From NCBI GenBank assembly GCA_964016885.1, contig OZ024744.1:74338001-74402000 (forward strand): DNA of 64,000 bases. The letters run 5' to 3'. This DNA comes from Eledone cirrhosa (Eukaryota). The position numbers and the translations under genes are program-made. Position 1 is the stretch's first letter; each line of letters starts with the position of its first letter. The notes under the pieces are model-generated. The model was not told the origin of the DNA and did not search any database. It saw only the letters and a list, made by a program, of their open reading frames with translations. This document shows positions 8,300 to 36,960 of this stretch, in pieces.

Positions 8300-8478
8300 G
8301 GCGGTATCGGTAGAGGGTCTAACGCCATGCTTTGCGGAATAGAGTTATGGCCCTTTATGATCTGAGTTCAAATCCCGCCAAGGTTAACTTTTCCCTTCAA
8401 CCTTACAGGATCGATAAAGTAAAGAACCTGTAATACACTGGGATAATTGCTGGTCTTTTGCCAAAAGTAGAAACAATT
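8300..8478 (+). mobile_element. tRNA-derived SINE, same family
   Basis: GGCGGTATCGGTAGA...GAGTTCAAATCCC...GATCGATAAAGTAAAG...GTAGAAACAATT; a Tx1 element starts where its (ATT)n tail would be. Confidence 0.8.
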
Positions 8479-11400
8479 GGTCTGTTCAGACGTCTTTTTG
8501 TTCTCTCCCAGTAAGTTGCTTTATTTACCTGTTATAATGATTTGTTGTTAAATTTTTCTCGTGTAAGGGATATAAGCCCTTGGACTTTGCCCTGTGAAGG
8601 GCAATGTATAATATTTATAATATTTGGGCCTTTTGGCCCAAATATTTGAACATTTTACTTTTAAAAATTATATTTAAAAAAAAACATGGTTGCTGTCGTG
8701 TGACAACGGCATAACAGTTGGGAGGAAGGTTACAGAAATTGATACAACAAACACCACCACAAACAACGTGAACAAAGACAACAACACTGAGAACACTAAT
8801 TTTAAGAAAATTACCACACCAACTACAATAACAGCGTCAACCAAAATACAGACAACAGAAAAAAATGACAACAAATGCAACAACGATATTAACACCACTA
8901 ACAAGAAAATAAACAACAACACAATACAAATTGCACCGAAAACAACAACAACGGTGGCACCAAAAATACAACCAACTACAACAGTGATAACAGCAACAAC
9001 ACCAACAACACCGATTGTAGCAGTAGCAACAGCAACAGCACCAACAACTAGACCAGTAGCAACAGTAGCGGCAGCAATAATAGTGCCGCTGAAAAGGGGG
9101 CCACTTCTTTCGCAGGTGTGGGCGGAAATATGGAGACAGTGTTAGACACGGAGGAGGATATGGCAGTCGCAAGAGCCATGGTGACAAGAAATGACAACAG
9201 AGTTTCCCTGAAACCTCCACCCGATTTCTTCAAAGACCAGCAGCTGCGTACGGTGACTTATCGCACCGTAAGCAAAATATCACATAGGGTGGAGAGAGCC
9301 AAGGAAGCTCAAATCCAAAACACCTTGGGGTGCGTTTGGGCGCTTAAAACCCACATCACCCGAGGCAAAAAGTACGCCACAGTAGACGTACTTTTCGCCA
9401 CCCCCAAGAGGTGAAGTCTCACTCTTTGGAAACCATAAAGACTGAGTAGATAGTCTTGGTGTCCTCCTACTGCAGGCAGAAACTTGTGAGAGTCAAAGTG
9501 GCCCAGGTCCAGCCCAACGTGCCCATACCTGGGCTGGCCGAGACTGTACTTGCTGGAATCGAGGACAGGACCACCTTACTGCAAATACAGAGAATGGGAA
9601 GAGAGAACTGGTCAGGTATAGGCATGCAAATGCTAATAAAAACTGACCAGGAGTGCATCGAGGCCATCCCAGATATTATAGACCTCGAAGAATGTCTCCA
9701 ACTCCCTATAAGCGGGGAAGGAAGGCGCCCAAAGTGCTATCTCTGTGGGCAGAAGTGTCACCTCAGGGCCTTCTGCCCGCAGAAGACAGCCCAGAAGAGG
9801 GCTGCCCTCCTTGCGACGCCTGATCCGTTGCTACCAAGAGCAGGGAGGCAACAGAGGCAGAAGACCCTTCCATTGTCAATAGGGTGGCAACGTCCGTGGC
9901 ACTCATACCAAGGCCACGGACAACTAAAACATCGGAAGCAGTGGCGGCAACACCAATAGTCGAAGTAGCTACACCGGCGGCAAAATCGCCGGAGCGGGCT
10001 CCACTACCACCACCAACAGCAATGGAGCTCATGCCCCTCCAAGACGCCACGGAATCCGACATGGAGTATGAGGCGGGAGTGAAGTGGCAAACGGTCGCCA
10101 CAAAAACAAAAAAAAACAAAGAAAACCCTTAGCTTCACACTCCAAAAGCGAAGGCAGACAAAGAGGAGTAAAGGCTGCAAGGAGACTTGCAGCAATACCA
10201 CCACCATCACCATCACCACCACAAACATCAACACCAACAACAACCACACCACCACCAGCATTACCAAAAGCACCAACATCGCAAACACAACAAAGCACAC
10301 ACACCCAAAAGCAACAAAACTACTCCTCCCCCCCAAAAGTACACAGCCATAAACATTGCACACGAAGGAGTAATACAACATATAAAACAACAGACATTAC
10401 AGACTCAAATTACCACACCCCACCAATGTCACGAACATTTTCCAAAAAAACATAAACATTGTGGAAATTAAACTCGAAGACTACAAAAGATTAAAACAAA
10501 AATTCTCCAATTGCGTTGGGGATTTGAGGGGGCTTACTCTCCAAGAGAATCTAGACAGATATCGTCTTGGAGACACTCATGACCAGCCGAATGGACAGTT
10601 CTACTGTCCCTTCTCCACACGATCAAGGTAAGTGATCCCCTTTCTCTCTTACCCCGTTTCTCATCCAACATGGCCGTACTTAGAATAGGCAGTATAAATG
10701 TATGTGGCCTGGGGTCATCTTGGAAGCAGGGTGACCTGCTCAACGACCTCAGGTCACTAAACATAGATGTGGTGGCCATCAGCGAGACCAGAATCTCCGA
10801 AGCACGAACCTTCGCACCAGGGTGGGGGGAATTTGCCGTGCCCTCTTCCTGGACCCAGAAGGTAAGTCGGTGGTGCTAGACGTGACGGGCAGCGAAGGCA
10901 ATACTTTCAGGCTAGAAGCCGTCTACGCCCCAACAGGGGCAGGACGGCCAGATTTCTTCAGACGTCTAGAGACCTTTCTTTGAACGTCCCGCTCTTTAGT
11001 GTTAGTGGGCGATTGGAACGGTATCTTTGATGCACGCTGGGATTGTGTGGGGCTAGTAGACAGAGCAGGAGGGTGTAAAAGCCTCACCAACCTGCTCAGA
11101 CGATTTGAACCGTCTGAGAGGTATAGACTGGATTATCCCAATGTGCCAATGTGGACATGGGCAAACCGCATCTGGTCATCCAGATCGCATTCAGATAGCG
11201 TATTCTGTACGGAAACAGATAAGACTAGTATATTTTGTCCATAATTTAAAGTAGTCGACTACACGGACCACACATTTGTGATCTGTGAAGTTGAATTAGA
11301 TAGACTCCATAGGCAAGGACCCGGCGCGCAAAGCTTACAGAGACCGGATTAGCGAATTAGTTAAGCGTCCGTTGACGGGAGCGATCGTCAACAACAGCTG

Positions 11401-13773
11401 GTGGTTTACCCTGAAAAGGGCTATTAGAGTAGAATCGACAAGGTTTAGTAAAGGAGTAGTGATAGAAGGAAATACAGTAGAGGGATAGTTACTTAGAAAA
11501 CTAGAAGAGGCGTTTAGGACAGGCATCGCAACCGAGATGTTTGTGGCGAGATTGGCACTCGACCAATTCTTCAACGCAAAACACGAAGGCGGCGTTGTCA
11601 GAGCTAGAGCGCGTGCTCTGAAACACGAGGGGAAGAAAGTCGTCCAAAGGGCCCGGGTGGCAGGTGCATGACGTGGCAACAAAGCCACAATTCTGTCTTT
11701 GTCTGACCAAAACGGGTGCCTGTTGCACGAACCCGAGCAGATGTGTGAGGGGGGGGTATGGACTTCAGTGCATACCTGGGCGTACTGCCACGGCTCTCGA
11801 CAACGGCAGCACAGTGTTGCGAAAAGCCAATAACAGCCGGTGAAATAGGAGAAACCATGGCTAACTGCACGAGGGGTAAATCGCCAGGTTTGAATGGTCT
11901 GCCCTACGAGATTTATGCATTTAAACAAGACTTGTTCGGTGACCTTTTGGCAGACGTTTACTGCAACTGGCAGAAGTACGGCATCATTCCCAGTTTTGTG
12001 AGCCGAGGAGCGGTGGCGCTGCTGAGAAAAGACCAGAACATAACAATTTTATCGATAACTTCAGGCCCATAACTCTGCTATACGCAGAGTTCAAGATTTT
12101 GCCAAGGTGTTAGCAACGAGGTTCGCGCTGGTCGTCGAGGGCCTGGTGGGAGAGGCGCAGACTTGCACCATTCCGGACAGATCTATACACGACAACCTCC
12201 ACCTCATGCGATACATCGTAGAGAGGGTGGTTAAGGAAACTGGCACGAGTGGGGCCCTGATCAACTTGGATCAATCCAAAGCATTTGATAGGGTTAACAT
12301 CGGTACCTGGCGGCGGTCCTCGAGGCAGCCCGTTTCGGGCCCGTTTTCAGGGGTTGGAAAGCTGCGATGTACAGCGACATCTGCTCAGTTGTGAGGGTAA
12401 ATGATCACCTGTCGCAGCCGTTCAGCATCATGCGCTCGGTCCGCCAGGGTTGTCCCCTCTCGTCCCTCTTGTACATATTGGCTCTCGAGCCGTTCCTGCA
12501 GAAACTGGGGGCGATGAGGGACGGCCCACACGAACTAGCATGTGGGAAATACCAGTCAGCTTAGTACGTCACTGTAGTGGTGTCGAGCACCAGACACATC
12601 CAGATGATCGGCACCGCTCTCAATAATACGAAGCGGTGACAGGTGCAAATATAAACCAGGGAAAGTCGTGGGGCGTTGGACGGACGGACCGGTTAAATTG
12701 CTCGGGGTCTGGTTCGGACTCGGACCTCCAGATGGAGAAAAACTGGAGCGAAGTGACGAGCATGTTGGCCTCCCTCACTCAGAAATCGGCTGAGAGGAAG
12801 CTGTCACTGAGCGGAGGTGGCGAATGCGTACATCGCATCCGTCATCTGCTACAGCCTCACCGTCGTCCCTTGTCCCGTTCTATAGAGGACTAGTGGAGGG
12901 GACGAGTGACGACGTTCTCGTAGAGATCTGGGCGTCGAAGAAGATCAGCTGTTTGCTCTCTTCCGGTGAACTTTCAGCCAAGGGCTTATGGATAACCTCC
13001 AGAAATCCCTGGCCTGGCAGTGCTACCGGGGAGCTTTGCCGGTTCGAGATAACCTCTACAGGCACGGAAGTGCCGTCAACCGATCCTGTCCGAGATGCGC
13101 GCAGAGCGACGAAACCGTCGTGCACGCACTCGTTCAGTGCCCGAGCATTGCTGTCACGTGTAGGACCGATCATGTTATCGACTGAGTCCATTGTGCAGAT
13201 AGTCTCGCCGTTTTCCTTCGAGGAGGAAGAGCAGGGGGTTTTCATCTGCCTAGTGGCCATGGTGAAAGGGATTGTGTGGTGGACAAGGTTGAAAGGTTTA
13301 AAGATAGACACTCTCCTCTTCGGCGAATCCCTGATTAACATTTTCAAGTTTTACTTGAAGAGGGAAATCAGTGTGGAGAGACAAATGCTGTCTTCTAGCA
13401 AGTTTGTTGACAGGTGGGTGAATGTAGCGAGAATGGTCCGAGTGAACGGGACCGCTCTGAATATACGCTTATAGTTTGAGGAATGGGAACAAATTGAGAG
13501 GGGTGGCTTTCCCTGTTTGTCAGGCTGGCCGTGGTCTTTTGTGTGGTTTTCGCCACGAGTAACCCTCGGAAGTTTTCTCCCTGTTGGGGAATTTTTCATT
13601 GTTTGAATTTTCATTTTTGCTGTTTATATATATATATGTTTCTATGTCTTTTTTCTTTTTCGTTTCTTATATAAATAATAAAAATCTTTACACGCACAAA
13701 ACCCACATCGTACCGTCCTGTCCGTTCAGTAATGTTTTGCTTGATGTAAGCCCTTGTGGCCAATAAAGAAATC
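8479..13773 (+). mobile_element. Near full-length, degenerate Tx1/L1-clade non-LTR retrotransposon
   Basis: ORF1 remnants (Thr-rich N-terminus, YATVDVLF, CYLCGQKCHLRAFC zinc knuckle); ORF2 remnants (IGSINVCG, VAISET, GDWN APE motifs; KSPGLNG, DQSKAFD, VRQGCPLS RT; CPRC..H...C); many frameshifts and deletions; ends TGTGGCCAATAAAGAAATC + (ATT)n. Confidence 0.92.
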
Positions 13774-13791
13774 ATTATTATTATTATTATT

Positions 13792-13978
13792 GGGCGGTAG
13801 ATTGGCAGTATTGGGAGTGGGTCGGACGCCATGCTTTGACGTATAGAGTTACGGCCCTTGCCATTCTGAGTTCAAATCCCGCCGAGGTTAACTTTGCCTT
13901 TCATCCTTACGGGGTCGATAAAATAAAATACCAGTAATGCATTGGGTAATTGATGGCCTTGTGCCTAACGTAGAAACA

Positions 13979-13979
<1 letters not shown>
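13792..13979 (+). mobile_element. tRNA-derived SINE with (ATT)n tail
   Basis: GGGCGGTAGATTGGCAGTATTGG, GAGTTCAAATCCC, GCCTTTCATCCTTACGGGGTCGATAAAATAAAATACCAGT, GTAGAAACA(ATT)n. Confidence 0.88.
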
Positions 13980-14020
<41 letters not shown>

Positions 14021-14022
<2 letters not shown>

Positions 14023-16670
14023 AGTTGCATTTATCTTGCTTTATGTTCATACGAGTTATCACCAAGTCACAACCAGTGACCTCAAGAGACAACAAGGTCC
14101 GCCATGTTCAAGGAAGAACATACATACTCACACATGCATCTTTAGTGTTTAGACTTGTGATGTACTTATATTGACAGAATCTTCCTTAGTATATGGGCAG
14201 TTCCCATTATTACTATCTTTTGTATTTCTCCTATACGCGGGTTTCCTGGGATCTGCGATAAGTAATCATTAGACCCCTTAGGTATCATTCCCAGAGCGCC
14301 TACAACCACTGGTATTGTTTTAGTTCTCAATTTCCACATTTTTCCTATTTCTATCTCCAGGTCCTTATACTTGCTCAATTTTTCAAATGTTTTTATAGAT
14401 ACATTCTTGTCTATTGGAACAGACATATCAATTAGCAGACATAACCTCTTTTTAAAGTCCTTTAATATTATATCAGGTCTATTTCCATCTATTTTTCGGT
14501 CTGTTTGGATGCTAAAGTTCCACAAGATTGAGATGTGATCTTTTTCAAGTATGGGAGGTGGTTGATGCTCCCACCAATTCTTTTGATGGGGCAGGTCAAA
14601 ATGCTTACACATTATCCAATGTATGTATTGTGCAGCTCTGTCATGCCTGTTTAGGTATTCGGTTGGAGCTATAGGACTGCACATTGAAATTATATGGTCA
14701 ATGGTCTCTGGTTGTTTTTTTGCATACACGGCATAATGGGCTGCATCCATTTTTTTATTATGTTGGCTTGGTAATTTTTTGTTGGCAGACACTGATCTTG
14801 GGCTGATATAATCAGTCCTTCAGTCTCCGATTTCAGTCCAGAGGATGCCAACCACTGATGGGTTAAAGTTTTGTCAACATCAGGATTGTTAGCTCGCTCT
14901 GGGTATTTTCCATACAGAGGCTTTTCTTGCCATTTCTTAGCCAGTTTCTGTAGCAGTTCTTTCTTTGCAGTTACTTTTACCTGCTCTTCTTTTTCTGTGT
15001 TTTCCATTTCAGCAGTAAATGGGACTTCTGAAATTTGTAGTCCATTACTGTATCTTTGTGCATCTTTTGTAATGGAATATGATCTTTTGATGCTTTCGTG
15101 TTTCAAAACGAGTTTGATCATTCAATCATGTGATTCCCTTAGATATGTAGATAATCCAATTGTTGCAGTTTTCAACGCAATGTCTAACTGGATTAACCCA
15201 CGTCCTCCTTCTTTCCTAGGGAGATATATTCTATCTATATCTGCCTTAGGGTGATGCATTCAGTGCATGGTTAAGAATTTTCGAATTTTTGTATCGAGCC
15301 TACGGATCTCTGTACTTGACCAGTTGATGACATTGTAACTGTAGGTTACTACTGGTATGGCAAGCGTGTTTATGGCATCGATCCTATTCCTTGCATTCAA
15401 TTCCGTTCTTAAGATTGCTCTTACTCTGCGGTAACATTCCTTCCTTATCATTTCCCTCATTGTCGAGTGCTTGATTCCGTCTCCTTCACAAACACCTCGA
15501 TATTTGTCAGTTTTTTCTTGATCAAGTTCTCTTATAACGTTCCCCCGATCAAGATTAATGTCTGAACTCTTCAGCAGCTTTCCTCTGGTGAACGTTGCTT
15601 TGGCGCATTTATCTAGTCCAAACTCCATTTTAATGTCATCACTGAACTGCTCCACAGTGGATAATAGCCCTTGCAATTGTTCATCATTTTTTGCAAATAG
15701 TTTCAGGTCATCCATGTAGAACAGGTGATTAATGGTTTTGTCATAGACTTTATATCCATGTTTTGTTTCATTGAGCATTTTACTTAATGGTATAAGTGCG
15801 ATGCAGAATAAAAGCGGTGATAAAGAGTCACCCTGAAAAATTCCACAATTAATATTAACTTCTCCAGCTTCCAGTGATTTTGTTTCACTATTCAAAAGGA
15901 GTGTAGTTTTCCATGTCTTCATACTGAATGACAAAAACCTCCTGACAACGGGGGATATTTTGAAAATTTCTAAACATTTTTCAATCCAACTGTGTGGCAA
16001 ACTATCGAATGCTTTTTTATAATCTATCCAAGCAATCGATAGATTTTTGTGTCTATTATGACAATCTTCCAGTATCATTTTGTTAACCAGAAGCTGATCC
16101 TTACAGCCATATGAGCCTCGTTTACACCCTTTCTGCTCAATGGGAAATAGGTCATTTGTTATCAGGTGGTCATATGTGTATTCAGTTAGGACTGACGTTA
16201 AAATGTTATACATTGTGCTCAAGCAAGTTATCGGTCTGTAATTTTTGGGATTGTTTGTCTCATCATTCTTCGGAAGCAGGAATGTAATGCCGTTAACTAG
16301 CCATGATGGTATCTTTTCTGGCTCCTTAACTATTTCATTGTAAAGTTGGGCTAACAGCTCATGAGACTCTGTGAAGGCATTTATCCAAAAGTTTTGTATT
16401 TTGTCTTTTCCTGGGGATTTCCATTTGCTGGTTTTTCTTAGAGCCAAGCGCAACTGTTCAACTGTTATATTTTCCCATATTTGTTCCTCAAGGTGAGCTG
16501 TATCTTTCATTTGTCTGTCTATCCATGGGGCATGTATGTTATGAACTTTGTCTTCGGCCCAGATCTTTTCCCAGAATTCTTGTACTTCCTCCTTGGGTGG
16601 TATTGATTTAGCAGTTATTGTTGACTTACCAATTTTTCTGTAGAAGTTTCTTTGGTTGTTTTTGAACATA
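14021..16670 (-). mobile_element. 5'-truncated R4/Dong-like element family A
   Basis: ORFs 15260-16669, 14690-15121 and 14166-14792 are near-identical to the 28502-32152 protein; same 3' UTR; (ATT)n on both sides. Confidence 0.96.
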
Positions 16671-16685
16671 TTATTATTATTATTA

Positions 16686-16725
<40 letters not shown>

Positions 16726-17520
16726 CATTTGCATTTATCTTGCTTTATGTTTATACGAGTTATCACCAAGTCACAACCAGTGACCTCAAGAGACAACAAG
16801 GTCCGCCATGTTCAAGAAAGAACATACATATTCGCACATGCATCCTTAGTGTTTAGACTTGTGATGTACTTATATTGACAGAATCTTCCTTAGTATATGG
16901 GCAGTTCCCATTAGTACTATCTTTTGTATTTCTCCTATACGCGGGTTTCCTGGGATTTGCGATAAGTAGTCGTTAGACCCCTTAGGTATCATTCCCAGAG
17001 CGCCTACAACCACTGGTATTGTTTTACTTCTCAATTTCCACATTTTTCCAATTTCTATCTCCAGGTCCTTATACTTGCTCAATTTTTCAAATGTTTTTAT
17101 AGATACATTCTTGTCTATTGGAACAGACATATCAATTAGTAGGCATACCCTCCTTTGAAAGTCCTTCAATATTATATCAGGTCTATTTGCATCTATTTTT
17201 CGGTCTGTTTGGATGCTAAAGTTCCACAAGATTGAGATGTGATCTTTTTCAAGTATGGGAGGTAGTTGTTGCTCCCACCAATTCTTTTGATGGGGCAGGT
17301 CAAAATGCTTACACATTATCCAATGTATGTATTGTGCAGCTCTGTCATGCCTGTTTAGGTATTCGGTTGGAGCTATAGGACTGCACATTGAAATTATATG
17401 GTCAATGGTCTCTGGTTGTTTTTTGCATACACGGCATAAATGGCTGCACCCAATTTTTATTATGTTGGCTTGGTAATTTTTTGTTGGCAGACACTGATCT
17501 TGGGCCGATATAATCAGTCC

Positions 17521-17522
<2 letters not shown>
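16726..17522 (-). mobile_element. Short 5'-truncated R4/Dong-like element family A
   Basis: RLE domain ORF 16870-17388 plus 3' UTR near-identical to 31500-32293; (ATT)n on both sides. Confidence 0.96.
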
Positions 17523-17580
<58 letters not shown>

Positions 17581-17583
<3 letters not shown>

Positions 17584-19265
17584 CTTGAATCTCAGTCATT
17601 GATGTTAGTTAACTGGAAAGTCCGTTGGAATGAATATCAAGCCACTACCTGCAGCCTCAGATATTCAGGACGTATCGGAGGGTTCTTGCTGTTCCCAGCA
17701 AGCATGCCTTTTGAAGCGTTCCAAAAAGCGTGAAGCGGCCGATTTTCTTTAACCATCCCTGGAAACTTTTGGAGATAGTCCCCAGTGCGCCTATGACAAT
17801 CGAGATCACTTTGACTTCATGGCTGTTCCAAATCCTTTTTACCTCCCACTTTAAGTCCTGGTATCGGTTAATTTTCTCCCTCTCCTTCTCTTGCACTCTC
17901 GTGTCGAATGGGCAGGCCACATCCACAATCAGACACGATCTTTTTTCTTTGTCCACAACCACCAGGTCAGGTCTATTGTGTTCCAGTTTCTTGTCCGTCT
18001 GTATCCTAAAATCCCACAGCACCTTCACCTGATCGTTCTCCATCACCGCCTCTGGCTTATGCTCATACCATTTCTCAGAATGTGGTAAATTGTTTACTTT
18101 GCACAGGTGCCAGTGGATTACCCTGCCCATCACATCATGTCTCCAGCCCTTATAGTGGGTCTGGGCTAAGTGTTTACACTCGGATACAATGTGAGCCACA
18201 GTCTCCTCTCTCTCTCCACAGATCCTGCACAGTGGGCTAGCCTCCTCCTTGTAAATATGGTGTTTCAACCACTTCGTTTTGAGGGCCTGCTCCTGAGCAG
18301 CCATTAACATTCCTTCTGTAGCCTTTTTAAGGTCTCCTCTTCTCAACCAGTTCCATGTCTGTGGATCGCTAAATTCAGTTTTCTCAAAGAAGGTACTATG
18401 AAGGGATTTTTCCTGAAGGCTGCTCTTCCTCCTTGATGTTATTTCCTCCTTGGACATTCCCTGGCCTATTGTCCCCTCCTTCAGTACAGTTCTGAGCATT
18501 GGCTCTTACTATCAGTCACGTATTTGTGTAGGTTGTTTTTCTCCATCTGAACACAGTCCTCTATGCTGATAAGACCTCTTCCACCCTCAGATCTCCTTAG
18601 GTAGAGTCTATCGACATCACTCCTCTTGTGGAACATGTTGTAGATAGTCAATAGCTTCCTAGTCTTCCTATCCATTTCTTTTTGTTCAGCAACATTCCAT
18701 CTCAGAATTCCCGCACTGTACCTAATAATAGACACAGCTCGGGAATTTACTGCGCTTATGGCATTTCTGCTGTTCAGATGTGACTTCAATACGCTCCTTA
18801 CTCTCCGAATGTATTCAGTTCTTAACAATTCCTTCATTTTTTTGTTCTTTATGCCATCAGCCTCCAGAACGCCCAAATACTTGTATCCTTCCTCAGAGTC
18901 AATTTCCTTTATCATCTCACCTGTTGGTATCTGGATTCCGTTACTTCTGCTCAACCTACCCCTCCTCATCACAATGACTCCACTCTTACTAATACCAAAC
19001 TGCATACATATATCACTGCTGAAAATACGGACAGTGCCAACAAGCACATCCAACTCCTTCTCACTCTTCCCGAAGAGCTTAAGATCGTCCATGAAGAGGA
19101 GGTGATTGATGGTAAGCCCTCCCTTTCCCAACCCGTATCCTGATCTCACTTTTCGCAGTACACTGGTCAGGGGCATCAGGACAAGGACAAACAACAGAGG
19201 GGACAGGCTATCTCCCAGGAAGATACCTCTCTTGATCTTCACGCTTCCCAAGGATTCTCCAGTTG
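17581..19265 (-). mobile_element. 5'-truncated R4/Dong-like element family B
   Basis: ORFs 18481-19251 and 17657-18499 (one frameshift) near-identical to the C-terminal half of 33450-36842; (ATT)n on both sides. Confidence 0.96.
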
Positions 19266-19497
19266 TATTATTATTATTATTATTATTGGCGACCTACGTA
19301 GTAAATCGTATTATCGTGAGCTCCGCAAAGGTTTGTTATTTCCGTTTGTTAAAAATTGCCATTTATGGAAAATGTTTATTGTTAACCATATATAAGCGCA
19401 CATACATTGTTTTCCGAAAAGGACACCCAAAAAGATTGGGGCCTTGTGCCCAAAATTTAAACTTTTATGATTATCAAAAAATTTCTTTGAGAAAAAA

Positions 19498-21457: not shown

Positions 21458-21491
21458 GTGGTCTTTCCCATCTTTTCCACTCCTTTTCAAC

Positions 21492-25153: not shown

Positions 25154-25193
<40 letters not shown>

Positions 25194-25506: not shown

Positions 25507-25660
25507 GGTGCCTAATTTTGGCATGATACCAAAAATTTCGGTGGACAGGGAAATGCAAGAACCGATCAAGTACTTAACTGGTATTTTACTCAATCGACTA
25601 GAAAGTTATAACTAAATACAATAAACCATCGTGTCCCGCACTCTAACGTTTATATTAATA

Positions 25661-26253: not shown

Positions 26254-26313
<60 letters not shown>

Positions 26314-26626
26314 CGGCGTTCCTAAAGGAAGTTTGTAAGTTTAAGCGTATATAAGAGAAAGTTGCAGCATGTATGTAGTTTTATCGAATTTTAAGGGGAG
26401 TAGAGAGAGGTAAGCAGATTCTATTAGAGGTGTAAAGCGTCATGTATTTAGTTTTATCGATTATTTCCGTAATTGTGGGTGAGTTTGAAATAAATACATA
26501 GTCGTTGACCTAAGTTAGACCATTTACAACATTCTTACAGACATTCAGTCGAATCGGTTTGAAATTGTGCAAATGTATAAAATTGAAACATACATACAGA
26601 CACAAAAATCTGCCTTTTATAGATAA
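25661..26626 (+). mobile_element. Non-autonomous Helitron/Helentron-like element (Lep1/DINE-1 style)
   Basis: Starts ACTAG followed by hairpin CCCGGCGTTGCTCGGG; ends ...GAATCGGTTTGAAA...ACATACATACAGACA...CTTTTATATAGAT; internal (CT)n. Confidence 0.6.
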
Positions 26627-26674
26627 TGATGATGATGATTATAACAATGATTTCTCATTAACGGACAGGAGGAT

Positions 26675-27366
26675 GTAGATTGCTGCACGGCAAGAATGGA
26701 AATCCTGCGAAGACAGAGATATGCGTCCTCTCAAGTAAATCTGCTCAGTGCACTCATCATGTGAGTGGAGTTCCACTGAAGCAGATGAAGTTGAAGTATC
26801 TTAGGGCCGTTTTCACGAGTGATGGAAAGCAAGATGTTGAATTAAATACAAGAATTGCAGGAGCTGGTGCAGTAATGCGTTCAGTAGCAAGGGATGTAAG
26901 AGAAAGGCCAAACTCTTCAGTTCGGTCTTTGTGTCAACCCTTAACGATGGTCTTGAATCTTGTCTAATGACCGAAACAATACGATCGCAAATACAATCTG
27001 CAAAAATGGGGTTCCTCCGAAGGTTCTAAGGTAATAACGTTACTCGATGGAGTGCATTAGTCTAAGGTCAGAGAATCTCCAGGTAGAGCTGCTTCTTCTC
27101 CGAATTGAGAGATCACAGCTCTGATATTATGGACATGTGATTTGAATGTCTCAGGAAAGAATCGCTGGAAAAATATTACGGGCAAAACCAACCGCAGGTA
27201 ACCTTAGGGTGGACCCCGAGCAATATGGTTGTATAACATCCATGACCTTGGCTCGTGACGCTTGAGGATCCAGCCGGATCAGTTGGAGACCGTTGCTTCT
27301 CACAAGAGTTGCTGAAATGCGTGGCTGGAGAATCGGCCCCAGCGATCCTCTCAGAAATAAGTGAAC

Positions 27367-27370
<4 letters not shown>
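26675..27370 (+). mobile_element. 5'-truncated degenerate RTE-clade (Rex3/Expander-like) element with (AAT)n tail
   Basis: KYL.AVFTSDGK..VELNTRI.GAGAVMRS; MTETIRSQIQSAKMGFLRR; LLLRIERSQL*YYGHV; ends in (AAT)n at 27368-27421. Confidence 0.8.
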
Positions 27371-27422
<52 letters not shown>

Positions 27423-27425
27423 TAA

Positions 27426-30400
27426 GGGAAGAAGACGCACGAGGTGGTAGAACGTCACGAAATTGCTCCCGTAAGTTTTTTGATTTTTAACATATTTAAA
27501 TCAATTGTGAAAGAACAATTCTTAGCACAAATGTTGCATAAAGGCACCGAATGAGGTCCCATAAAGTTTCGGATCCATATTATATTGTTGTATCGCTCAA
27601 ATATTCAATTTTGTATTATATATTTTGTATTCAAAAAAAGAAAATGGTTATAAATGGAACAAAACACCCTCTGTCTACACTATATAGAACAGCGGCAATT
27701 TCAATTTCACCAACACCAGAAACTTGATACACTACCTATCCCATCACACTAAATATAACGGCAACTTCACCGGCATCATAATAATAATTACTATTATTAT
27801 TGTCTCAAATTTAAAAAAATGTTTAATTCAAATTTTACGGGAATATGTCAACACAAAATATAATGAAAATATATATTAAACATACGAACACAAACTCATA
27901 GATACTATATCAGTAACCACAACACCACCACATCCATCATCGCCACCACTCATTCAATGCTACTGACACTATTCCCCTGTTAACTTGAGAGAGAAAAGGG
28001 AAGGTGGTGGTAGCACTAGACAAGAGAGAGGCTAGCAAAAGATATAAATAGATTGACTTGGTAACCTTGCCACGGACAAATGTCTACATCAACAATTATG
28101 GGACTGCTGGCTCACCCCTTCCTCACCAACAATATAAAAAGCCCCGGCACCACCACCGACATAGCCAGCAGCAATAACAGCCAACTACAACAAAAAGTAT
28201 ATTATATTATTGTAATGCACTGGGTGATTGCTGGCCTGGAGTGGAGACAATTATTAATAATTTCATTCTTAAGCCACGCAATGCTCACATTAAGGAACCA
28301 CTCATGATAATAACAATTTAAAAAAAACAACAAAAAGAAAACCCCGTGACCAAGAAATACCGGGATGGCGGCCGGCGGGGAATAGCCATGTCTCTAGGGG
28401 AGAACGACCCCTCTAGTCTTGGTTGACACTCGTTCTAGAAGTGGTAACACGAAAAGATTACCCCTTGGCGGATAAGGATAAAACGCGACAAAATAAAGTA
28501 GATGTCTAATGATGAAATCTCATACCGGATCGGCCGTCACCCGGGTAAAAAAGGGCCGCGTCCCTCAGAGAGGAACCAGACTGGGGTCGAAAAATCAGCT
28601 AATGGTTCAAACCTTCCCATCACTTCGGAGCTGGAGACCTCCCATAACCGGAATACTCCTACTGTTGGCCCTCCATGCTCACCACCAAGAAATCCAAAGA
28701 AAAAGAGAGAAAAATGGTCAAGGGAAGATAATAAAGAAGTCCTTGAGGCTTTCTACACTGCCATGTACTACCCATCAAATACATCGAATACAGAGCAAAC
28801 ATATATCAACTGGAAAAAGAAACATCCCGAAAACAGAGGCTATATTGACAGTAACAAACTAGCCAATATACGAAGAAATATTGTAAGAAAAAAGTTACTA
28901 ACTGATATAGAAATTGATCAGATCAAGCTAGTAGCACAAAGTCAGCGAAGAGAAAATGAAGCATGTGTCAGTGAAAACGAGGTAAAATGTAACACTTCGA
29001 ATCCCAGAGTTGGGGCGGAATCACTGGCAACAGAACAAATTAAAGAAAGGAGCGAAAAAGTGGAGGGAGTGCATGCTCAGGATGAAACGCCAAATGAAAA
29101 TAATGAGATCGTAAATGATAAAGAAATGAATGAGAATGAACTTGCCAACTTGAAGGATGAAATTATGATCGAATGGATGAAAATGAAAGAATCTGACATG
29201 GGGGAACGAGACACCCTCCCTAAGATCCAGAACTCCAAACAGAACCAAAAGATAATACACAAGACAAACATAATTCTCAAAAACATTATCATCACAAACA
29301 AACTAAGCATTACTGACTTAAATCATCTCTATTATGCATCGGCTAAAGTCACCACTCACTTATGTGGAGTGAAGATGAAAAAACAAAGGAATTCCCACAA
29401 GAAATCTACTTGGCAAGATAACATCAATCGCCAAATAAACCTTCTCCGATCTGACATAGAAATTTTAACAAACTATAAAGTAGGTGAACATGTTAAACAA
29501 ACTAAACTTAGAAAATTGAAAAAAAAGTACAGTATAAGATCAACATGTGACATAGACATGCTGATAGAAACAATCAAGCAAAAAGTGTCGGCCAAAGCTG
29601 CTCGTATAAGGCGCTTTGAAAAACGATCTAGATTCTATAAGGACAATAATATGTTCAAAAACAACCAAAGAAACTTCTACAGAAAAATTGGTAAGTCAAC
29701 AATAACTGCTAAATCAATACCACCCAAGGAGGAAGTGCAAGAATTCTGGGAAAAGATCTGGGCCGAAGAAAAAGTTCATAACATACATGCCCCATGGATA
29801 GACAGACAAATGAAAGAAACAGCTCACCTTGAAGAACAAACATGGGAAAATATAACAGTTGAACAGCTGCGCTTGGCTCTAAGAAAAACCAGCAAATGGA
29901 AATCCCCAGGAAAAGACAAAATACAAAACTTTTGGATAAATGCCTTCACAGAGTCTCATGAGCTGTTAGCCCAACTTTACAATGAAATAGTTAAGGAGCC
30001 AGAAAAGATACCATCATGGCTAGTTAACGGCATTACATTCCTGCTACCGAAGAATGATGAGACAAACAATCCCAAAAATTACAGACCGATAACCTGCTTG
30101 ACCACAATGTATAAAATTTTAACATCAGTCCTAACTGAATACACATATGACCACCTGATAACAAATGACCTATTTCCCATTGAGCAGAAAGGGTGTAAAC
30201 GAGGCTCATATGGCTGTAAGGATCAGCTTCTGGTTAACAAAATGATACTGGAAGATTGTCATAATAGACACAAAAATCTATCGATTGCTTGGATAGATTA
30301 TAAAAAAGCATTTGATAGTTTGCCACACAGTTGGATTGAAAAATGTTTAGAGATTTTCAAAATATCCCCCGTTATCAGGAGGTTTTTGTCATTCGGTATG

Positions 30401-32293
30401 AGGACATGGAGAACGACACTCCTTTTGAATAGTGAAACAAAATCACTGGAAGCTGGAGAAGTTAACATTAATTGTGGAATTTTTCAGGGTGACTCTTTAT
30501 CACCGCTTTTATTCTGCATCGCACTTATACCATTAAGTAAAATGCTCAATGAAACAAAACATGGATATAGAGTCTATGACAAAACCATTAATCACCTGTT
30601 CTACATGGATGACCTGAAACTATTTGCAAAAAATGATGAACAATTGCAAGGGCTATTATCCACTGTGAAGCAGTTCAGTGATGACATTAAAATGGAGTTT
30701 GGACTGGATAAATGCGCCAAAGCAACGTTCACCAGAGGAAAGCTGCTGAAGAGTTCAGACATTAATCTTGATCGGGGGAACGTGATAAGAGAGCTTGATC
30801 AAGAACAAACTTACAAATATCTAGGTGTTTGTGAAGGAGACGGAATCAAGCACTCGACAATGAGGGAAAGGTTAAGGAAGGAATGTTACCGCAGAGTCAG
30901 AGCAATCTTAAGAACGGAATTGAATGCAAGGAATAGGATCGATGCCATAAACACGCTTGCCATACCAGTAGTAACCTACAGTTACAATGTCATCAACTGG
31001 TCAAGCACAGAGATCCGTAGGCTCGATACAAAAATCCGAAAATTCTTAACCATGCACAGAATGCATCACCCTAAGGCAGACATAGATAGAATATATCTCC
31101 CTAGGAAAGAAGGAGGACGTGGGTTAATCCAGTTAGACATTGCGTTGAAAACTGCAACAATTGGATTATCCACATATCTAAGGGAATCACATGATTGGAT
31201 GATCAAACTCGTTTTGAAACACGAAAGCACCAAAAGATCATATTCCATTACAAAAGATGCACAAAGATACAGTAATGGACTACAAATTTCAGAAGTCCCA
31301 TTTACTGCTGAAATGGAAAACACAGAAAAAGCAAAGCAGGTAAAAGTAACTGCAAAGAAAGAACTGCTACAGAAACTGGCTAAGAAATGGCAAGAAAAGC
31401 CTCTGTATGGAAAATACCCAGAGCGAGCTAACAATCCTGATGTTGACAAAACTTTAACCCATCAGTGGTTGGCATCCTCTGGACTGAAATCGGAGACTGA
31501 AGGACTGATTATATCCGCACAAGATCAGTGTCTGCCAACAAAAAATTACCAAGCCAACATAATAAAAAATGGGTGCAGCCCATTATGCCGTGTATGCAAA
31601 AAACAACCAGAGACCATTGACCATATAATTTCAATGTGCAGTCCTATAGCTCCAACCGAATACCTAAACAGGCATGACAGAGCTGCACAATACATACATT
31701 GGATAATGTGCAAGCATTTTGACCTGCCCCATCAAAAGAATTGGTGGGAGCATCAACCACCTCCCATACTTGAAAAAGATCACATCTCAATCTTGTGGAA
31801 CTTTAGCATTCAAACAGACCGAAAAATAGATGCAAATAGACCTGATATAATATTGAAGGACTTTCAAAGGAGGGTATGCCTGCTAATTGATATGTCTGTT
31901 CCAATAGACAAGAATGTATCTATAAAAACATTTGAAAAATTGAGCAAGTATAAAGACCTGGAGATAGAAATTGGAAAAATGTGGAAATTGAGAACTAAAA
32001 CAATACCAGTGGTTGTAGGCGCTCTGGGAATGATACCTAAGGGGTCTAACGACTACTTATCGCAAATCCCAGGAAACCCGCGTATAGGAGAAATACAAAA
32101 GATAGTACTAATGGGAACTGCCCATATACTAAGGAAGATCCTGTCAATATAAGTACATCACAAGTCTAAACACTAAGGATGCATGTGTGAATATGTGTGT
32201 TCTTTCTTGAACATGGCGGACCTTGTTGTCTCTTGAGGTCACTGGTTGTGACTTGGTGATAACTCGTATAAACATAAAGCAAGATAAATGCAA
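27426..32293 (+). mobile_element. Full-length R4/Dong-like RLE non-LTR retrotransposon family A
   Basis: Bounded by (AAT)n on both sides; single intact ORF. The 5' boundary assumes the shared leader belongs to the element; the minimal start is ~28340. Confidence 0.9.
28502..32152 (+). CDS. R4/Dong-like polyprotein (Myb-like N-terminus, RT, CCHC, restriction-like endonuclease), 1216 aa
   Basis: KWSREDN..KLANIRR..LLTDIEI; NYRPITCL, WIDYKKAFDS, GIFQGDSLSP, FYMDD; CRVC-x8-H-x4-C; RHD, NRPD, IDMSVP, EKLSKY; uninterrupted. Confidence 0.97.
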   Translation: MSNDEISYRIGRHPGKKGPRPSERNQTGVEKSANGSNLPITSELETSHNRNTPTVGPPCSPPRNPKKKREKWSREDNKEVLEAFYTAMYYPSNTSNTEQTYINWKKKHPENRGYIDSNKLANIRRNIVRKKLLTDIEIDQIKLVAQSQRRENEACVSENEVKCNTSNPRVGAESLATEQIKERSEKVEGVHAQDETPNENNEIVNDKEMNENELANLKDEIMIEWMKMKESDMGERDTLPKIQNSKQNQKIIHKTNIILKNIIITNKLSITDLNHLYYASAKVTTHLCGVKMKKQRNSHKKSTWQDNINRQINLLRSDIEILTNYKVGEHVKQTKLRKLKKKYSIRSTCDIDMLIETIKQKVSAKAARIRRFEKRSRFYKDNNMFKNNQRNFYRKIGKSTITAKSIPPKEEVQEFWEKIWAEEKVHNIHAPWIDRQMKETAHLEEQTWENITVEQLRLALRKTSKWKSPGKDKIQNFWINAFTESHELLAQLYNEIVKEPEKIPSWLVNGITFLLPKNDETNNPKNYRPITCLTTMYKILTSVLTEYTYDHLITNDLFPIEQKGCKRGSYGCKDQLLVNKMILEDCHNRHKNLSIAWIDYKKAFDSLPHSWIEKCLEIFKISPVIRRFLSFGMRTWRTTLLLNSETKSLEAGEVNINCGIFQGDSLSPLLFCIALIPLSKMLNETKHGYRVYDKTINHLFYMDDLKLFAKNDEQLQGLLSTVKQFSDDIKMEFGLDKCAKATFTRGKLLKSSDINLDRGNVIRELDQEQTYKYLGVCEGDGIKHSTMRERLRKECYRRVRAILRTELNARNRIDAINTLAIPVVTYSYNVINWSSTEIRRLDTKIRKFLTMHRMHHPKADIDRIYLPRKEGGRGLIQLDIALKTATIGLSTYLRESHDWMIKLVLKHESTKRSYSITKDAQRYSNGLQISEVPFTAEMENTEKAKQVKVTAKKELLQKLAKKWQEKPLYGKYPERANNPDVDKTLTHQWLASSGLKSETEGLIISAQDQCLPTKNYQANIIKNGCSPLCRVCKKQPETIDHIISMCSPIAPTEYLNRHDRAAQYIHWIMCKHFDLPHQKNWWEHQPPPILEKDHISILWNFSIQTDRKIDANRPDIILKDFQRRVCLLIDMSVPIDKNVSIKTFEKLSKYKDLEIEIGKMWKLRTKTIPVVVGALGMIPKGSNDYLSQIPGNPRIGEIQKIVLMGTAHILRKILSI

Positions 32294-32316
32294 ATAATAA
32301 TAATAATATTAATAAC

Positions 32317-32388
<72 letters not shown>

Positions 32389-32394
32389 GAATAA

Positions 32395-35300
32395 GGGAAG
32401 AAGACGCACGAGGTGACGGAGGTCATGAAATCGCTCCCGTAAGTTTTGAATTTTTAACATATTTAAATCATTTGTGAAATAACAACTCTTAGTACAAATG
32501 CTACGTAAAGCACCTGGCTTGAGCCCCAAAAAAATTCGGACCCAAAATATATTGTTATAAGGCTCAAATATTCAAATATTCAACTTTGTATTGTACACTG
32601 TATATCCCAAAAAAAATGGCTATAAATGGAAGAAGAAGACCCCCCCCCCCTCCTCTCCTCTGGCTACACTATATAGGACAGCTAAACTCACCAACACCAG
32701 AAACTAGATACACCACCCACCCCATCATCTGTGTACACTAAACACAACAGCATTTTCACCTTCACCGCCACCGCTCACTACGGCCATCATTACCACCACT
32801 ATCCCATCACCGCCGCCACCACCCCCTGACTCCTTCACTGCTGCTGCCACCGCTACAGCACCATCACTACAGTAATACGGTCGCATCACCGCCACCACTG
32901 CCTCGGTATCGACATCACCACCACCACTGTCTCAGTATCGCCAACGCCGCCAGTCTCTGCTGGCTACCACTTCCACATTATAGAATTCCTACTACTAACA
33001 AAGAGGAAGGCATCAAAATATATAGATAGACTCAAAAGAAAAAAGAAAAAACAAACAACAAAAGCAGCACAGCAACAACAGTAAAAAACGAGAAAAACAG
33101 AGAAAAACAAAAACAAAAAAAGAAACCCCAAAAACGTAAAGAAAATAAGAATGAAGAGAGAAGCAGGCGGACGGACAGAGAAGAGGGGGGAAAAAGTAAA
33201 ACTTAAAAAACAAAAACTAAGTCAGACATTCGAATACTACATTACAATGAAACTTATGCTTATTCATTTTTGGGGCCCTTTCTGCCCGTGTGTTTGTTTG
33301 TTTATGTGTGTCCGTATACAGCGTGGTGATAATGCCACACAAGGGCCAAGTGGGATGGCGGATCCACAGATGGCTATGTAAACATACATTCGCCAATCCT
33401 CGATAAGAGTGTTTAAATATCGAACATAAACAGTTCGAATAACGGTGAAATGGAGACTAGAACGTCATGTGACAGACTCTCACCCAACAGGTGCCCCCTG
33501 GCTCAGCAGCAGGAACCTGACTGTCAACCAAATACTGCTGATGTTGGAGGAAGAAGAAGAAGGAAAGGGGCCAGAACCAACTGGACGAAAGAATTGAATA
33601 GAACTGTTATGCAATGCTACCTGAAAAGTAACCCCAAGGAGAGGGGCTACAGGAGACGGATGCATAACATCTGGAACGAGATTGGTTTATTTAAATTAGA
33701 TGAACAAAAATTGGCCGGGCAGGCTCGGGTAATAAAAACTAATGGGTGGATAAGCGAGCTGGAACTGGAGGAACTGAGCAGAGAGAACGGCTTGGAGATG
33801 GCGGGTGTAGTATGCCAGACAAGCGAGCCGGCGGGAAATGAAGGTGAGGAGGTCCTGAGAACGGAGGAACCACCCGAAGCAGACAATGATCTGAATACTG
33901 AGATAAATAATACCTGGAACAGAGATACGGCCACTGAGGAGATGAATGCTGACGGGCTAGGACAAGATTCGGTTGACATCCTAAATTTAGTGGTAGATGA
34001 GTTGAACAATGATAGTGGGAGACCTATGAACCTAAGATTTGTAGACAGGAAAAAGTTAAAAGAAACAACAGCTAAGGTAAACAAAGTCATCCCATACCTT
34101 GAGGCGAGGAGTCTTCACCAGTGCAACAATATCCTCAAAGCAACAGCAAATACGGTGAGGAAACTACTTGGTATAAAAGCGAGAGGAAACAACAGACAAG
34201 AAAGAGCAGAGCCGTGGTGGAAGAAGCGACTGAGTGGGCAAATCGGGGAAATGAGAAATGACATAGGAAAGCTTGAGTCACTACTGAATGGGACACTAAA
34301 AAACATAGGCACTAAAAATAGACTGGAAATAAAATACAAAACTAAGAGTAAAAAGCTAAATATTATCATAGAGGAATTGAAGCAACGCATTGTAGCAAAG
34401 AGCGCCAAAATCAGGCGATACGAGAACAGAGTCAGTCAGTATAAACAGAACCGCATGTTCGACAACAACCAGAAGATGCTGTTTGGACAGCTTGAGGGGA
34501 AAGAAAGAGGCAACGACTTGATCCCTGGGGCGGAACAAGCTAAAACATTCTGGAGAGGAATATGGGAGCAGGATGTTAGACACAATGCCCAGGCAGGGTG
34601 GATTGAGACAGTACAGAGGGAAATCGGTGAGCAGGCACAGCAACAGACTGATTTGAGTATCACAGTTGAAACTCTTAAGGGGCAAGCCAAAAAACTAACC
34701 AACTGGAAATCACCAGGCCCAGATGGTGTGCAGGGGTATTGGATTAAACATTTAACATCCCTCCACCCGAAGCTGACGGCCATGTTCAATGACTGCTTGG
34801 TGTCGGGTGAGGTGCCAGAGTGGTTGACAAAAGGTACCACAGTTCTGATAATGAAAGACCGAATCAAGGGTAATGATGTTACCAACTATAGACCTATCAC
34901 ATGTCTGCCCGTAATGTGGAAACTGTTGACGAGCATTGTGTCTGAGGAAATCTACCATCACCTCCACACAAACAACTTGTTGCCGGACGAACAGAAAGGA
35001 TGCCGAAAAAAGTCACGTGGTACAAAGGACCAGTTGCTTATTGATAAGATGGTAATGGGGAATTGCAGGAGGAGACACACTGATCTTGCCATGGGATGGA
35101 TAGACTACAGGAAGGCATTTGACATGGTGCCTCATTCCTGGATCACCAACAGCCTGGAGATCTTCAGGGTGGCAGATAACATCAGACAGTTGCTGGGCAG
35201 GAGTATGGGGTCCTGGGAGACAGAGTTGACATCAACTGGAGTATCCTTGGGAAGCGTGAAGATCAAGAGAGGTATCTTCCAGGGAGATAGCCTGTCCCCT

Positions 35301-36918
35301 CTGTTGTTTGTCCTTGCCCTGATGCCCTTGACCATTATGCTGCGAAAAGTGAGAGCAGGATACAAGTTGGGAAGGGGAGAGCTTACCATCAATCACCTCC
35401 TCTTCATGGACGATCTTAAGCTCTTCGGGAAAAGTGAGAAGGAGTTGGATGTGCTTGTTGACACTGTCCGTATTTTCAGCAGTGATATATGTATGCAGTT
35501 TGGTATTGGTAAATGTGGAGTCATTGTGATGAGGAGGGGTAGGTTGAGCAGAAGTAACGGGATCCAGATACCAACAGGTGAGATGATAAAGGAAATTGAC
35601 TCTGAGGAAGGATACAAGTATTTGGGCGTTCTGGAGGCTGATGGCATAAAGAACAAAAAAATGAAGGAATTGTTAAGAACTGAATACATTCGGAGAGTAA
35701 GGAGCGTATTGAAGTCACATCTGAACAGCAGAAATGCCATAAGCGCAGTAAATTCCCGAGCTGTGTCTATTATTAGGTACAGTGCGGGAATTCTGAGATG
35801 GAATGTTGCTGAACAAAAAGAAATGGATAGGAAGACTAGGAAGCTATTGACTATCTACAACATGTTCCACAAGAGGAGTGATGTCGATAGACTCTACCTA
35901 AGGAGATCTGAGGGTGGAAGAGGTCTTATCAGCATAGAGGACTGTGTTCAGATGGAGAAAAACAACCTATACAAATACGTGGCCTATAGTAAGGAGCCAA
36001 TGCTCAGAGCTGTACTGACGGAGGGGACAGTAGGCCAGGGGATACCCAAGGAGGAAATAACATCAAGGAGGAAGAGCAGCCTTAAGGGAAAATCCCTTCA
36101 TAGTACCTTCTTTGAGAAAACTGAATTTAGAGATCCACAGACATGGAACTGGTTGAGAAGAGGAGACCTCAAAAAGGCTACAGAAGGAATGCTAATGGCT
36201 GCGCAGGAGCAGGCCCTCAAAACGAAGTGGTTGAAGCACCATATCTACAAGGAGGAGGCTAGCCCACTGTGCAGGATCTGTGGAGAGAGAGAGGAGACTG
36301 TGGCTCACATTGTGTCCGAGTGTAAACACCTAGCCCAGACCCACTATAAGGGCTGGAGACACGATGTGATGGGCAGGGTAATCCACTGGCACCTGTGCAA
36401 AGTAAACAATCTACCACATTCTGAGAAATGGTATGAGCATAGGCCAGAGGCGGTGATGGAGAACAGTCAGGTGAAGGTGCTGTGGGATTTTAGGATACAG
36501 ACGGACAAAAAACTGGAACACAATAGACCTGACCTGGTGGTTGTGGACAAAGAAAAAAGATCGTGCCTGATTGTGGATGTGGCCTGCCCGTTCGACACGA
36601 GAGTGCAAGAGAAGGAGAGGGAGAAAATTAACCGATACCAGGACCTAAAGTGGGAGGTGAAAAGGATTTGGAACTGCCATGAAGTCAAAGTGATCCCGAT
36701 TGTCATAGGCGCACTGGGGACTATCTCCAAAGGTTTCCAGGGATGGTTAAAGAAAATCGGCCCCTTCACGCTTTTTGGAACGCTTCAAAAGGCATGCTTG
36801 CTTGGAACGGCAAGAACCCTCCGATACGTCCTGAATATCTGAGGCTGCAGGTAGTGGCTTGATATTCAATCCAACGGACTTCCCAGTTAACCAACATCAA
36901 TGACTGAGATTCAAGGAA
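32395..36918 (+). mobile_element. Full-length R4/Dong-like RLE non-LTR retrotransposon family B
   Basis: Bounded by (AAT)n on both sides; intact ORF; begins with the leader homologous to 27426-27970. Confidence 0.9.
33450..36842 (+). CDS. R4/Dong-like polyprotein (Myb-like N-terminus, RT, CCHC, restriction-like endonuclease), 1130 aa
   Basis: NWTKELN..MQCY..EQKLAGQAR..WISELELE; NYRPITCL, WIDYRKAFD, GIFQGDSLSP, LFMDD; CRIC-x8-H-x4-C; RHD, NRPD, VDVACP; uninterrupted. Confidence 0.97.
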   Translation: METRTSCDRLSPNRCPLAQQQEPDCQPNTADVGGRRRRKGARTNWTKELNRTVMQCYLKSNPKERGYRRRMHNIWNEIGLFKLDEQKLAGQARVIKTNGWISELELEELSRENGLEMAGVVCQTSEPAGNEGEEVLRTEEPPEADNDLNTEINNTWNRDTATEEMNADGLGQDSVDILNLVVDELNNDSGRPMNLRFVDRKKLKETTAKVNKVIPYLEARSLHQCNNILKATANTVRKLLGIKARGNNRQERAEPWWKKRLSGQIGEMRNDIGKLESLLNGTLKNIGTKNRLEIKYKTKSKKLNIIIEELKQRIVAKSAKIRRYENRVSQYKQNRMFDNNQKMLFGQLEGKERGNDLIPGAEQAKTFWRGIWEQDVRHNAQAGWIETVQREIGEQAQQQTDLSITVETLKGQAKKLTNWKSPGPDGVQGYWIKHLTSLHPKLTAMFNDCLVSGEVPEWLTKGTTVLIMKDRIKGNDVTNYRPITCLPVMWKLLTSIVSEEIYHHLHTNNLLPDEQKGCRKKSRGTKDQLLIDKMVMGNCRRRHTDLAMGWIDYRKAFDMVPHSWITNSLEIFRVADNIRQLLGRSMGSWETELTSTGVSLGSVKIKRGIFQGDSLSPLLFVLALMPLTIMLRKVRAGYKLGRGELTINHLLFMDDLKLFGKSEKELDVLVDTVRIFSSDICMQFGIGKCGVIVMRRGRLSRSNGIQIPTGEMIKEIDSEEGYKYLGVLEADGIKNKKMKELLRTEYIRRVRSVLKSHLNSRNAISAVNSRAVSIIRYSAGILRWNVAEQKEMDRKTRKLLTIYNMFHKRSDVDRLYLRRSEGGRGLISIEDCVQMEKNNLYKYVAYSKEPMLRAVLTEGTVGQGIPKEEITSRRKSSLKGKSLHSTFFEKTEFRDPQTWNWLRRGDLKKATEGMLMAAQEQALKTKWLKHHIYKEEASPLCRICGEREETVAHIVSECKHLAQTHYKGWRHDVMGRVIHWHLCKVNNLPHSEKWYEHRPEAVMENSQVKVLWDFRIQTDKKLEHNRPDLVVVDKEKRSCLIVDVACPFDTRVQEKEREKINRYQDLKWEVKRIWNCHEVKVIPIVIGALGTISKGFQGWLKKIGPFTLFGTLQKACLLGTARTLRYVLNI

Positions 36919-36928
36919 TAACAATAAC

Positions 36929-36960
<32 letters not shown>

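Follow-up and report, generated by a model that had tools for sequence, protein, structure and literature searches.

Why retrotransposons of unrelated kinds come to be stacked one behind another, each joined to the next by the same trinucleotide repeat, is the question raised by a 64,000-nucleotide stretch of Eledone cirrhosa contig OZ024744.1 (positions 74,338,001 to 74,402,000 of the forward strand; hereafter the window, in whose coordinates positions are given). A preliminary description of the window had presented positions 8300 to 36960 as a single stack of about 28 kb, in which long interspersed elements (LINEs) of the Dong type (families DongA and DongB) and of the Tx1 type (Tx1a and Tx1b), short interspersed elements (SINEs) and an RTE-like fragment are joined by (ATT)n or, on the other strand, (AAT)n. 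When the whole window was re-examined, all the elements and tracts named were present, in the order and orientation stated; they are laid out, however, not as one stack but as two, at 8278-25193 (16.9 kb, seven insertions) and at 27368-36960 (9.6 kb, two insertions), spaced 2.2 kb apart. Followed along the sense strand, each of the five DongA and DongB copies runs into (AAT)n; the two Tx1 copies run into (ATT)n. The explanation favoured here, with a probability of roughly 0.8, is that Dong and Tx1 elements target (AAT)n in fixed opposite directions, that priming is strand-wise, that repeat is gained on insertion and that stacks build up as a result.

Whether the repeat is a target, as had been proposed, or just a 3' tail turns on the 5' flanks of the copies and on the consistency of their orientation. 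When all fetched loci were pooled (431 distinct tracts, window copies included), 163 of 163 Dong 5' junctions were found on AAT, and 102 of 102 Tx1 and 34 of 34 SINE 5' junctions on ATT, these counts seeing only junctions with a tract; on the 3' side there were two exceptions (among 187 Dong and 110 Tx1 junctions), both of them internal fragments. Thirty-nine tracts lie between the 5' end of a Tx1 and the 5' end of a Dong, and tracts also adjoin truncated 5' ends (111 Dong, 14 Tx1). The background, drawn from forty evenly spaced 10-kb samples (400 kb) on contigs C1-C3 only, contained 36 perfect tracts of four or more units, which corresponds to a chance of about 0.07% per strand-specific junction; eight of the ten tracts with ten or more units in this sample abut a Tx1, a Dong or a SINE.

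The best-matching copies, those of the window included, point in the same direction: (AAT)4 or longer stands at the 5' end of 26 of 29 scoreable DongA copies (a thirtieth is unscoreable at a contig edge) and of 30 of 30 DongB copies, and Tx1b starts at (ATT)5-25|GG in 23 of 24 copies, a count that leaves out six partial loci (L055-L060) and whose exception has a 5' inversion. A second set was chosen by the last 195 bases only, which avoids selection on the 5' end. Here, with the window copy excluded, 33 of 39 Tx1 are full length (29 with the Tx1b front, four with another front) and all 33 start as ATT|G behind a tract, a 5' tract of four or more units being present in 34 of the 39. For DongA picked in the same manner (30 loci), the ten truncated 5' ends that are visible all follow AAT repeats, one of them being cut by the locus edge and another having an (AAG) spacer. 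The 5' junctions of Dong show no preference of phase (17/14/13 of 44) and mild microhomology, and (TAA)n is found at both Dong junctions. The 5' flanks of most copies are thus the tract, in a consistent orientation, and (AAT)n/(ATT)n is well supported as a genuine 5'-side target, genome-wide and with a fixed and opposite polarity for the two groups; on both points the preliminary description holds.

Several observations weigh against this reading. The tract-first counts can register only junctions that possess a tract, no perfect tract adjoins three of the 29 5' ends of DongA, and the 5' tracts of the older Tx1a copies are short, with three units or fewer in six of 22. Weakest is the evidence from truncated Tx1 copies: among the six picked by their 3' ends, one has a 5' tract of four or more units, one has two units, and four are fused straight to another stack element. 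The similarity between the 3' ends of the SINE and of Tx1b is, taken alone, not significant (p 0.09). No empty-site allele was recovered: no run contained half the sequence words of 25200-27360, and the four runs examined, swamped by repeat copies, bridged nothing. At four loci (L194, L203, L212 and L231), a truncated Tx1b stands head-to-head with a truncated DongB, the two sharing one to three bases with hardly any tract, if any, at the joint, an arrangement that suggests deletions during or after insertion within stacks.

The assignment of the Dong copies is based on their architecture. Both DongA and DongB have a reverse transcriptase (RT; Pfam RVT_1), a CX2CX8HX4C finger, read from the translations, and a C-terminal RPD..D..K motif; Dong/R4 elements are laid out as a single open reading frame (ORF) that encodes an RT, a CCHC finger and, at the C terminus, PD..D..K, and in a structure-bank comparison the best solved relatives of the Dong proteins were R2 proteins (residues 449-1162). 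A diverged Myb/SANT-like domain at the N terminus gave no match in a Pfam scan, which included no dedicated profile comparison, and no named Dong or R4 sequence stood among the 120 listed relatives. DongA and DongB share 36% protein identity. The 5' untranslated regions (UTRs) of the full-length copies, of about 1.0-1.1 kb, start directly at the tracts (27423 and 32388) and have in common a leader of about 390 nt (27423-27771 in DongA, 32388-32760 in DongB; 76% by blastn); the idea that these two stretches form a separate element was dropped, both being Dong 5' leaders. At one locus (L023), a DongA ORF carries a leader 88.7% like that of DongB, a mixture pointing to a possible exchange of leaders between Dong lineages. 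In many DongB copies (L075-L090), positions 167-493 of the 5' UTR are duplicated in tandem, sometimes twice, and a short fragment of a SINE 3' end (28210-28260) is fixed in the DongA 5' UTR, in all near-full copies. The DongB tail begins with an AAC-containing stretch that is identical across copies.

Tx1b has a two-ORF layout with an N-terminal apurinic-like endonuclease (APE), RT and zf-RVT, which is the architecture of the Tx1 group: Exo_endo_phos, RVT_1 and zf-RVT are recognised by Pfam in ORF2, and the nuclease is closest to L1 EN among solved structures. The window copy has two in-frame stops in ORF2, and other copies carry an ORF2 of 1152 aa. Among 120 listed relatives, the nearest named match to Tx1b ORF2 is a hypothetical protein of Argonauta hians (68%), and a named Tx1 reference is absent. 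The clade labels Dong and Tx1, which follow from architecture and not from an RT tree, are to be taken as probable. Long intact frames are present in 29 of 30 DongA and 29 of 30 DongB copies, and an ORF2 of 1100 aa or more in 15 of 24 near-full Tx1b copies. The share of full-length copies among the young Tx1 picked by their 3' ends (33 of 39) is unusually high for a LINE; in the four with a different front (L214, L219, L227 and L237), the front half is joined near the ORF1/ORF2 boundary.

Read on the plus strand, stack 1 opens with an imperfect (ATT)7 at 8278-8299, likely the original target of the stack; the 80 nt to the left of 8278 had no match in any fetched locus. This tract precedes an old SINE copy (8300-8475, plus strand; tRNA-type A and B box-like motifs recognised by eye; 87% identical to the closest fetched copy), which is joined by a single ATT (8476-8478) to Tx1a, a decayed, full-length APE-type LINE (8479-13773, plus strand; 86-88% to its closest copies). 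There follow (ATT)6 (13774-13791), a second, young SINE copy (13792-13978, plus strand), (ATT)14 (13979-14021), a 5'-truncated DongA of 2.6 kb on the minus strand (14022-16668; 97.3% to the full copy), an imperfect (ATT)20 (16669-16729) and another 5'-truncated, minus-strand DongA of 0.8 kb (16730-17520), which shares only 96.4% identity with its neighbour and so inserted on its own instead of arising by recent duplication. Beyond a further (ATT)20 (17521-17582) stands a minus-strand, 5'-truncated DongB of 1.7 kb (17583-19265; 96.2% to the full copy), and next the (ATT)7 at 19266-19287, which is flanked by the 5' ends of DongB and Tx1b and is therefore the 3' tail of neither. Tx1b itself (19288-25154, plus strand), a full-length APE-type LINE with ORF1 in pieces and ORF2 at 21453-24911, leads into (ATT)13 (25155-25193) at the right edge. 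A tRNA scan of the window found none.

Between the stacks, 25194-26649 holds a minus-strand SINE (25320-25506) together with a repeat with (CT)26 that is presumably Helitron-like. At 26650-27367 on the plus strand lies an old 3' fragment which, from its motifs, we take to be RTE-like; it is 80% identical to its closest copies, and the tail of its family is (GAA)n. Stack 2, also on the plus strand, begins there with (AAT)18 (27368-27422) and continues with a full-length DongA (27423-32292; intact ORF of 1216 aa at 28502-32152; 99.8% to the closest copies), an imperfect (AAT)31 (32293-32387), a full-length DongB (32388-36916; open frame of 1141 codons at 33417-36842; 99.5% to the closest copies) and (AAC/AAT)15. 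After this last tract (36959) come an (AAG)6 run and GAG units, the whole end spanning 36917-36989 and the (AAG)6/GAG part being likely the displaced remainder of the RTE tail.

The tracts add up to about 90 units in stack 1 and about 65 in stack 2, whereas the longest single tract among the 431 has 36. The summed tracts exceed any single one, so splitting alone is insufficient and repeat is added, which bears out, as net growth, the earlier proposal that each insertion splits and regenerates its target; the added repeat presumably comes from tails, target duplication and slippage, sources that the sums do not separate. Identity to the closest fetched copies is low for some layers (80% for the RTE fragment, 87% for the first SINE, 86-88% for Tx1a) and high for others (97% for the second SINE, at least 97.6-98.5% for the truncated Dongs, whose values, as those of truncated copies, are lower bounds, 97-99% for Tx1b, 99.5% for DongB and 99.8% for DongA). 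The left edges hold the old copies; the young ones came later.

Related families on other repeats, and elements of other kinds, lie elsewhere in the window. At 5256-7400 a decayed third Dong-like family, 28-38% like DongA and DongB, has (ACAT)22 on one side and a short run of ACAT on the other; ACAT is likely another target, that of this family. Relatives of Tx1 with the same 3' end motif and TATC tails occupy 57019-59970 and 61016-61900, and in the former the last 25 or so bases and the tail are repeated at 59940-59975. Frames with Penelope-like RT and GIY-YIG are found at 50351-54223, 55473-56988 and 46018-46587; inverted-repeat copies occur near 49488-50469 and 54299-54732.

In the mechanism proposed for the stacks, two unrelated LINE groups, one Dong/R4-like with a restriction-like endonuclease (RLE) and one Tx1-like with an APE, would insert into (AAT)n in fixed opposite orientations, the one group likely nicking and priming on one repeat strand and the other group on its complement. 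In target-primed reverse transcription, the nick from which priming starts is made in the complement of the element's sense strand; by this rule the primer strand would be AAT for Tx1 and ATT for Dong. Each insertion would likely leave more repeat than it found, and later copies would stack there, the new repeat being supplied by the tail of the element itself, by target duplication (about 15 nt, if that of the SINE is a fair proxy) and by slippage. Stacks are likely to have had seeds of several kinds: native tracts, as in stack 1, the tails of LINEs and, occasionally, the end of a SINE or, as in stack 2, the tail of an RTE. A wider reading, possible and put forward tentatively, holds that the APE and RLE nucleases are independently specific for complementary (AAT)n strands and that the two clades make each other's target, which would explain most long AAT microsatellites here, with the stacks acting as sites of promoter trading, as the shared Dong leader may illustrate.

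The alternatives differ in which step of this scheme they replace. In the preliminary description, stacks began at (ATT)n/(AAT)n targets supplied by the tails of SINEs and RTEs. As a rule this is unlikely, given that four or more ATT units are present in just one of 31 random SINE 3' ends (at least one unit in 28 of the 31) and in four of 30 ends of the closest copies, three of those four having a 5' tract as well, and that (AAT)3 or longer follows none of 29 other RTE copies, the window copy only, with (GAA)2 or longer in 24 of 30. Twenty-six SINEs abut a Dong or Tx1 end (29 minus three inside LINE bodies), and Tx1a often begins directly behind a SINE 3' end; up to seven of the 26 have no 5' tract, could be outermost and are possible seeds, whereas 17 have a 5' tract of three or more units, as do, with ATT on their 5' side, both SINEs of stack 1. 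At L093 and L135 the SINE arrived after the LINE, because its duplication repeats the terminal sequence of the adjoining LINE, and the far-side duplication expected under SINE seeding is absent in L131, the sole readable candidate, other stacks exceeding their loci. The part of the proposal that stands concerns stack 2, which is likely hosted by an RTE tail because it has the RTE end at its left and (AAG)6 at its right, and because two Dong loci have similar contexts (in L088 an RTE-family end runs into (AAT)25, and in L010 an RTE-like piece is followed by (GAA)n and then (AAT)31); seeding by SINE or RTE ends is occasional, not the general rule. The SINE itself probably rides with the Tx1 lineage as a passenger whose preference, for ATTAT, is looser, in view of both the shared 3' tail and the matching target expected of a SINE partnered with a LINE: its 3' end agrees with that of Tx1a in 31 of 45 nt, a score equalled by 0 of 2000 shuffles, with no match to RTE or DongB, and the target duplications of the closest copies, called by a crude script (four of 30 calls below 8 nt, some lengthened by neighbouring SINE ends), have a median of about 15 nt and mostly start with ATTAT, in the Tx1 phase.

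A different step is replaced if polarity and much of the specificity are set by the RNA tail, weak nucleases nicking AT-rich DNA and extension occurring only where the 3' end of the nick pairs with a tail of (AAU)n or (AUU)n. Each family examined is flanked by the repeat that forms its own tail, as with the (TATC)n that ends the Tx1 at 57019-59900 and the ACAT that flanks the Dong-like copy at 5256-7400; any ATTAT site serves for insertion of the SINE, with its short tail, and Tx1b, with its long one, needs tracts; and the accuracy of SART1Bm was improved by annealing of tail and target, according to the consulted sections of PMC7265360. The same sections nevertheless name the nuclease as the primary determinant and report that specificity shifted from SART1 to TRAS1 when the endonuclease domain was swapped, and the fixed ATT|G phase of full-length Tx1 5' ends belongs to the side on which the tail has no action. 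Such a primacy of the tail is regarded as rather doubtful; it replaces only the nuclease step and is compatible with most of the preferred explanation. On analysis, a nuclease-led choice of target aided by the tail appears most likely, and the convergence of the nucleases on opposite repeat strands, as proposed earlier, is plausible, tail annealing being expected to give the same polarity. Far less probable is the absence of any targeting, with tracts as encoded tails and stacks formed by passive survival, tandem duplication or mis-assembly. The 3' tracts are partly element-encoded, as the constant start of the DongB tail indicates, and the window is very repeat-rich, but the counts of 5' junctions already contradict this explanation: in 39 cases, 19266-19287 among them, a tract has a 5' end on each side, tracts occur at varied truncation points and in exact phase, and neighbouring copies differ by 2-4% and in length, with the same pattern on many contigs.

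Targeting of (AAT)n from both strands would add ATT to the list of targets of Tx1-type LINEs and makes available two naturally occurring elements that are active (with intact ORFs and copies 97-99.8% identical) on opposite strands of one repeat; with the TATC and ACAT sister families in the same window, the question of nuclease versus RNA tail becomes directly testable. It may also explain the hotspots of transposable elements (TEs) and the long AAT tracts of octopod genomes, the octopus hotspots being given without a cause in the available text of PMC13282606. Short-read insertion callers would be expected to miss insertions into such stacks, and this might be relevant to the small number of new Dong insertions counted in O. 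bimaculoides in the portion consulted of PMC9115989.

Parts of this picture are already published, namely Dong on (TAA)n, microsatellite-seeking Tx1, the opposite insertion of TRAS and SART and the convergence of Keno and Utopia. In the sections consulted, (TAA)n is the target of Dong-type elements of most insects, molluscs and cnidarians (PMC7998251; PMC3812793), and Dong-R4 is active in Octopus vulgaris, with five families and 1129 recent insertions (PMC13282606). Octopus papers describe active Dong-R4, L1-Tx1 and TE hotspots and state no targets in those portions (PMC13282606, PMC8967140, PMC9115989, PMC4758252); an ATT- or TTA-targeting Tx1 or an analysis of octopus targets was not found in the literature searched, and Repbase, Kojima and Fujiwara 2004 or supplements may name one. 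The Dong copies described here resemble Dong of Bombyx mori, DongAg, DongBg and Darwinula Dong1/2 in the single ORF, the RT, the C-terminal restriction-like nuclease and (TAA)n, and differ in that two lineages 36% identical have a common target and 5' leader, and in that the target is shared with an APE element. Bombyx Dong carries at its 5' end a hepatitis delta virus (HDV)-like ribozyme (PMC3774820, in part), whereas none was found at the Dong 5' end here with a strict home-made descriptor or with Rfam (E<=5), both of which diverged ribozymes can escape.

For Tx1, the text seen of PMC4494074 gives (TC)n for Kibi, (TTC)n for Koshi and (TTCC)n/(TTTC)n for crocodilian Tx1, and takes more than 20% of flanks as a target preference, a level far exceeded here by the 5' tracts of four or more units in 23 of 24 and 34 of 39 copies. 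The Tx1 of the stacks is likewise an APE-type, two-ORF, L1/Tx1-like element in a microsatellite; its ATT unit, however, is absent from the units named in that text, the figure with all targets aside. It differs also in its octopod-like host and in that most young copies (33 of 39) are full length. TRAS1 and SART1 are both APE elements of one clade. They insert in opposite directions into (TTAGG)n (PMC7265360, in the sections consulted) and, like Dong and Tx1, are two families facing opposite ways in one tandem repeat; unlike the telomeric case, the nuclease classes differ here, and the repeat is dispersed and regenerated. A further parallel is offered by Keno (APE, Tx1 clade) and Utopia (RLE), which in the text seen of PMC4640811 evolved in parallel the same target, U2 snRNA genes. 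In both systems an APE and an RLE element meet on the same target, but where Keno and Utopia use the same gene site with the same 3' flank, Dong and Tx1 occupy opposite strands of a microsatellite, a target likely of their own making.

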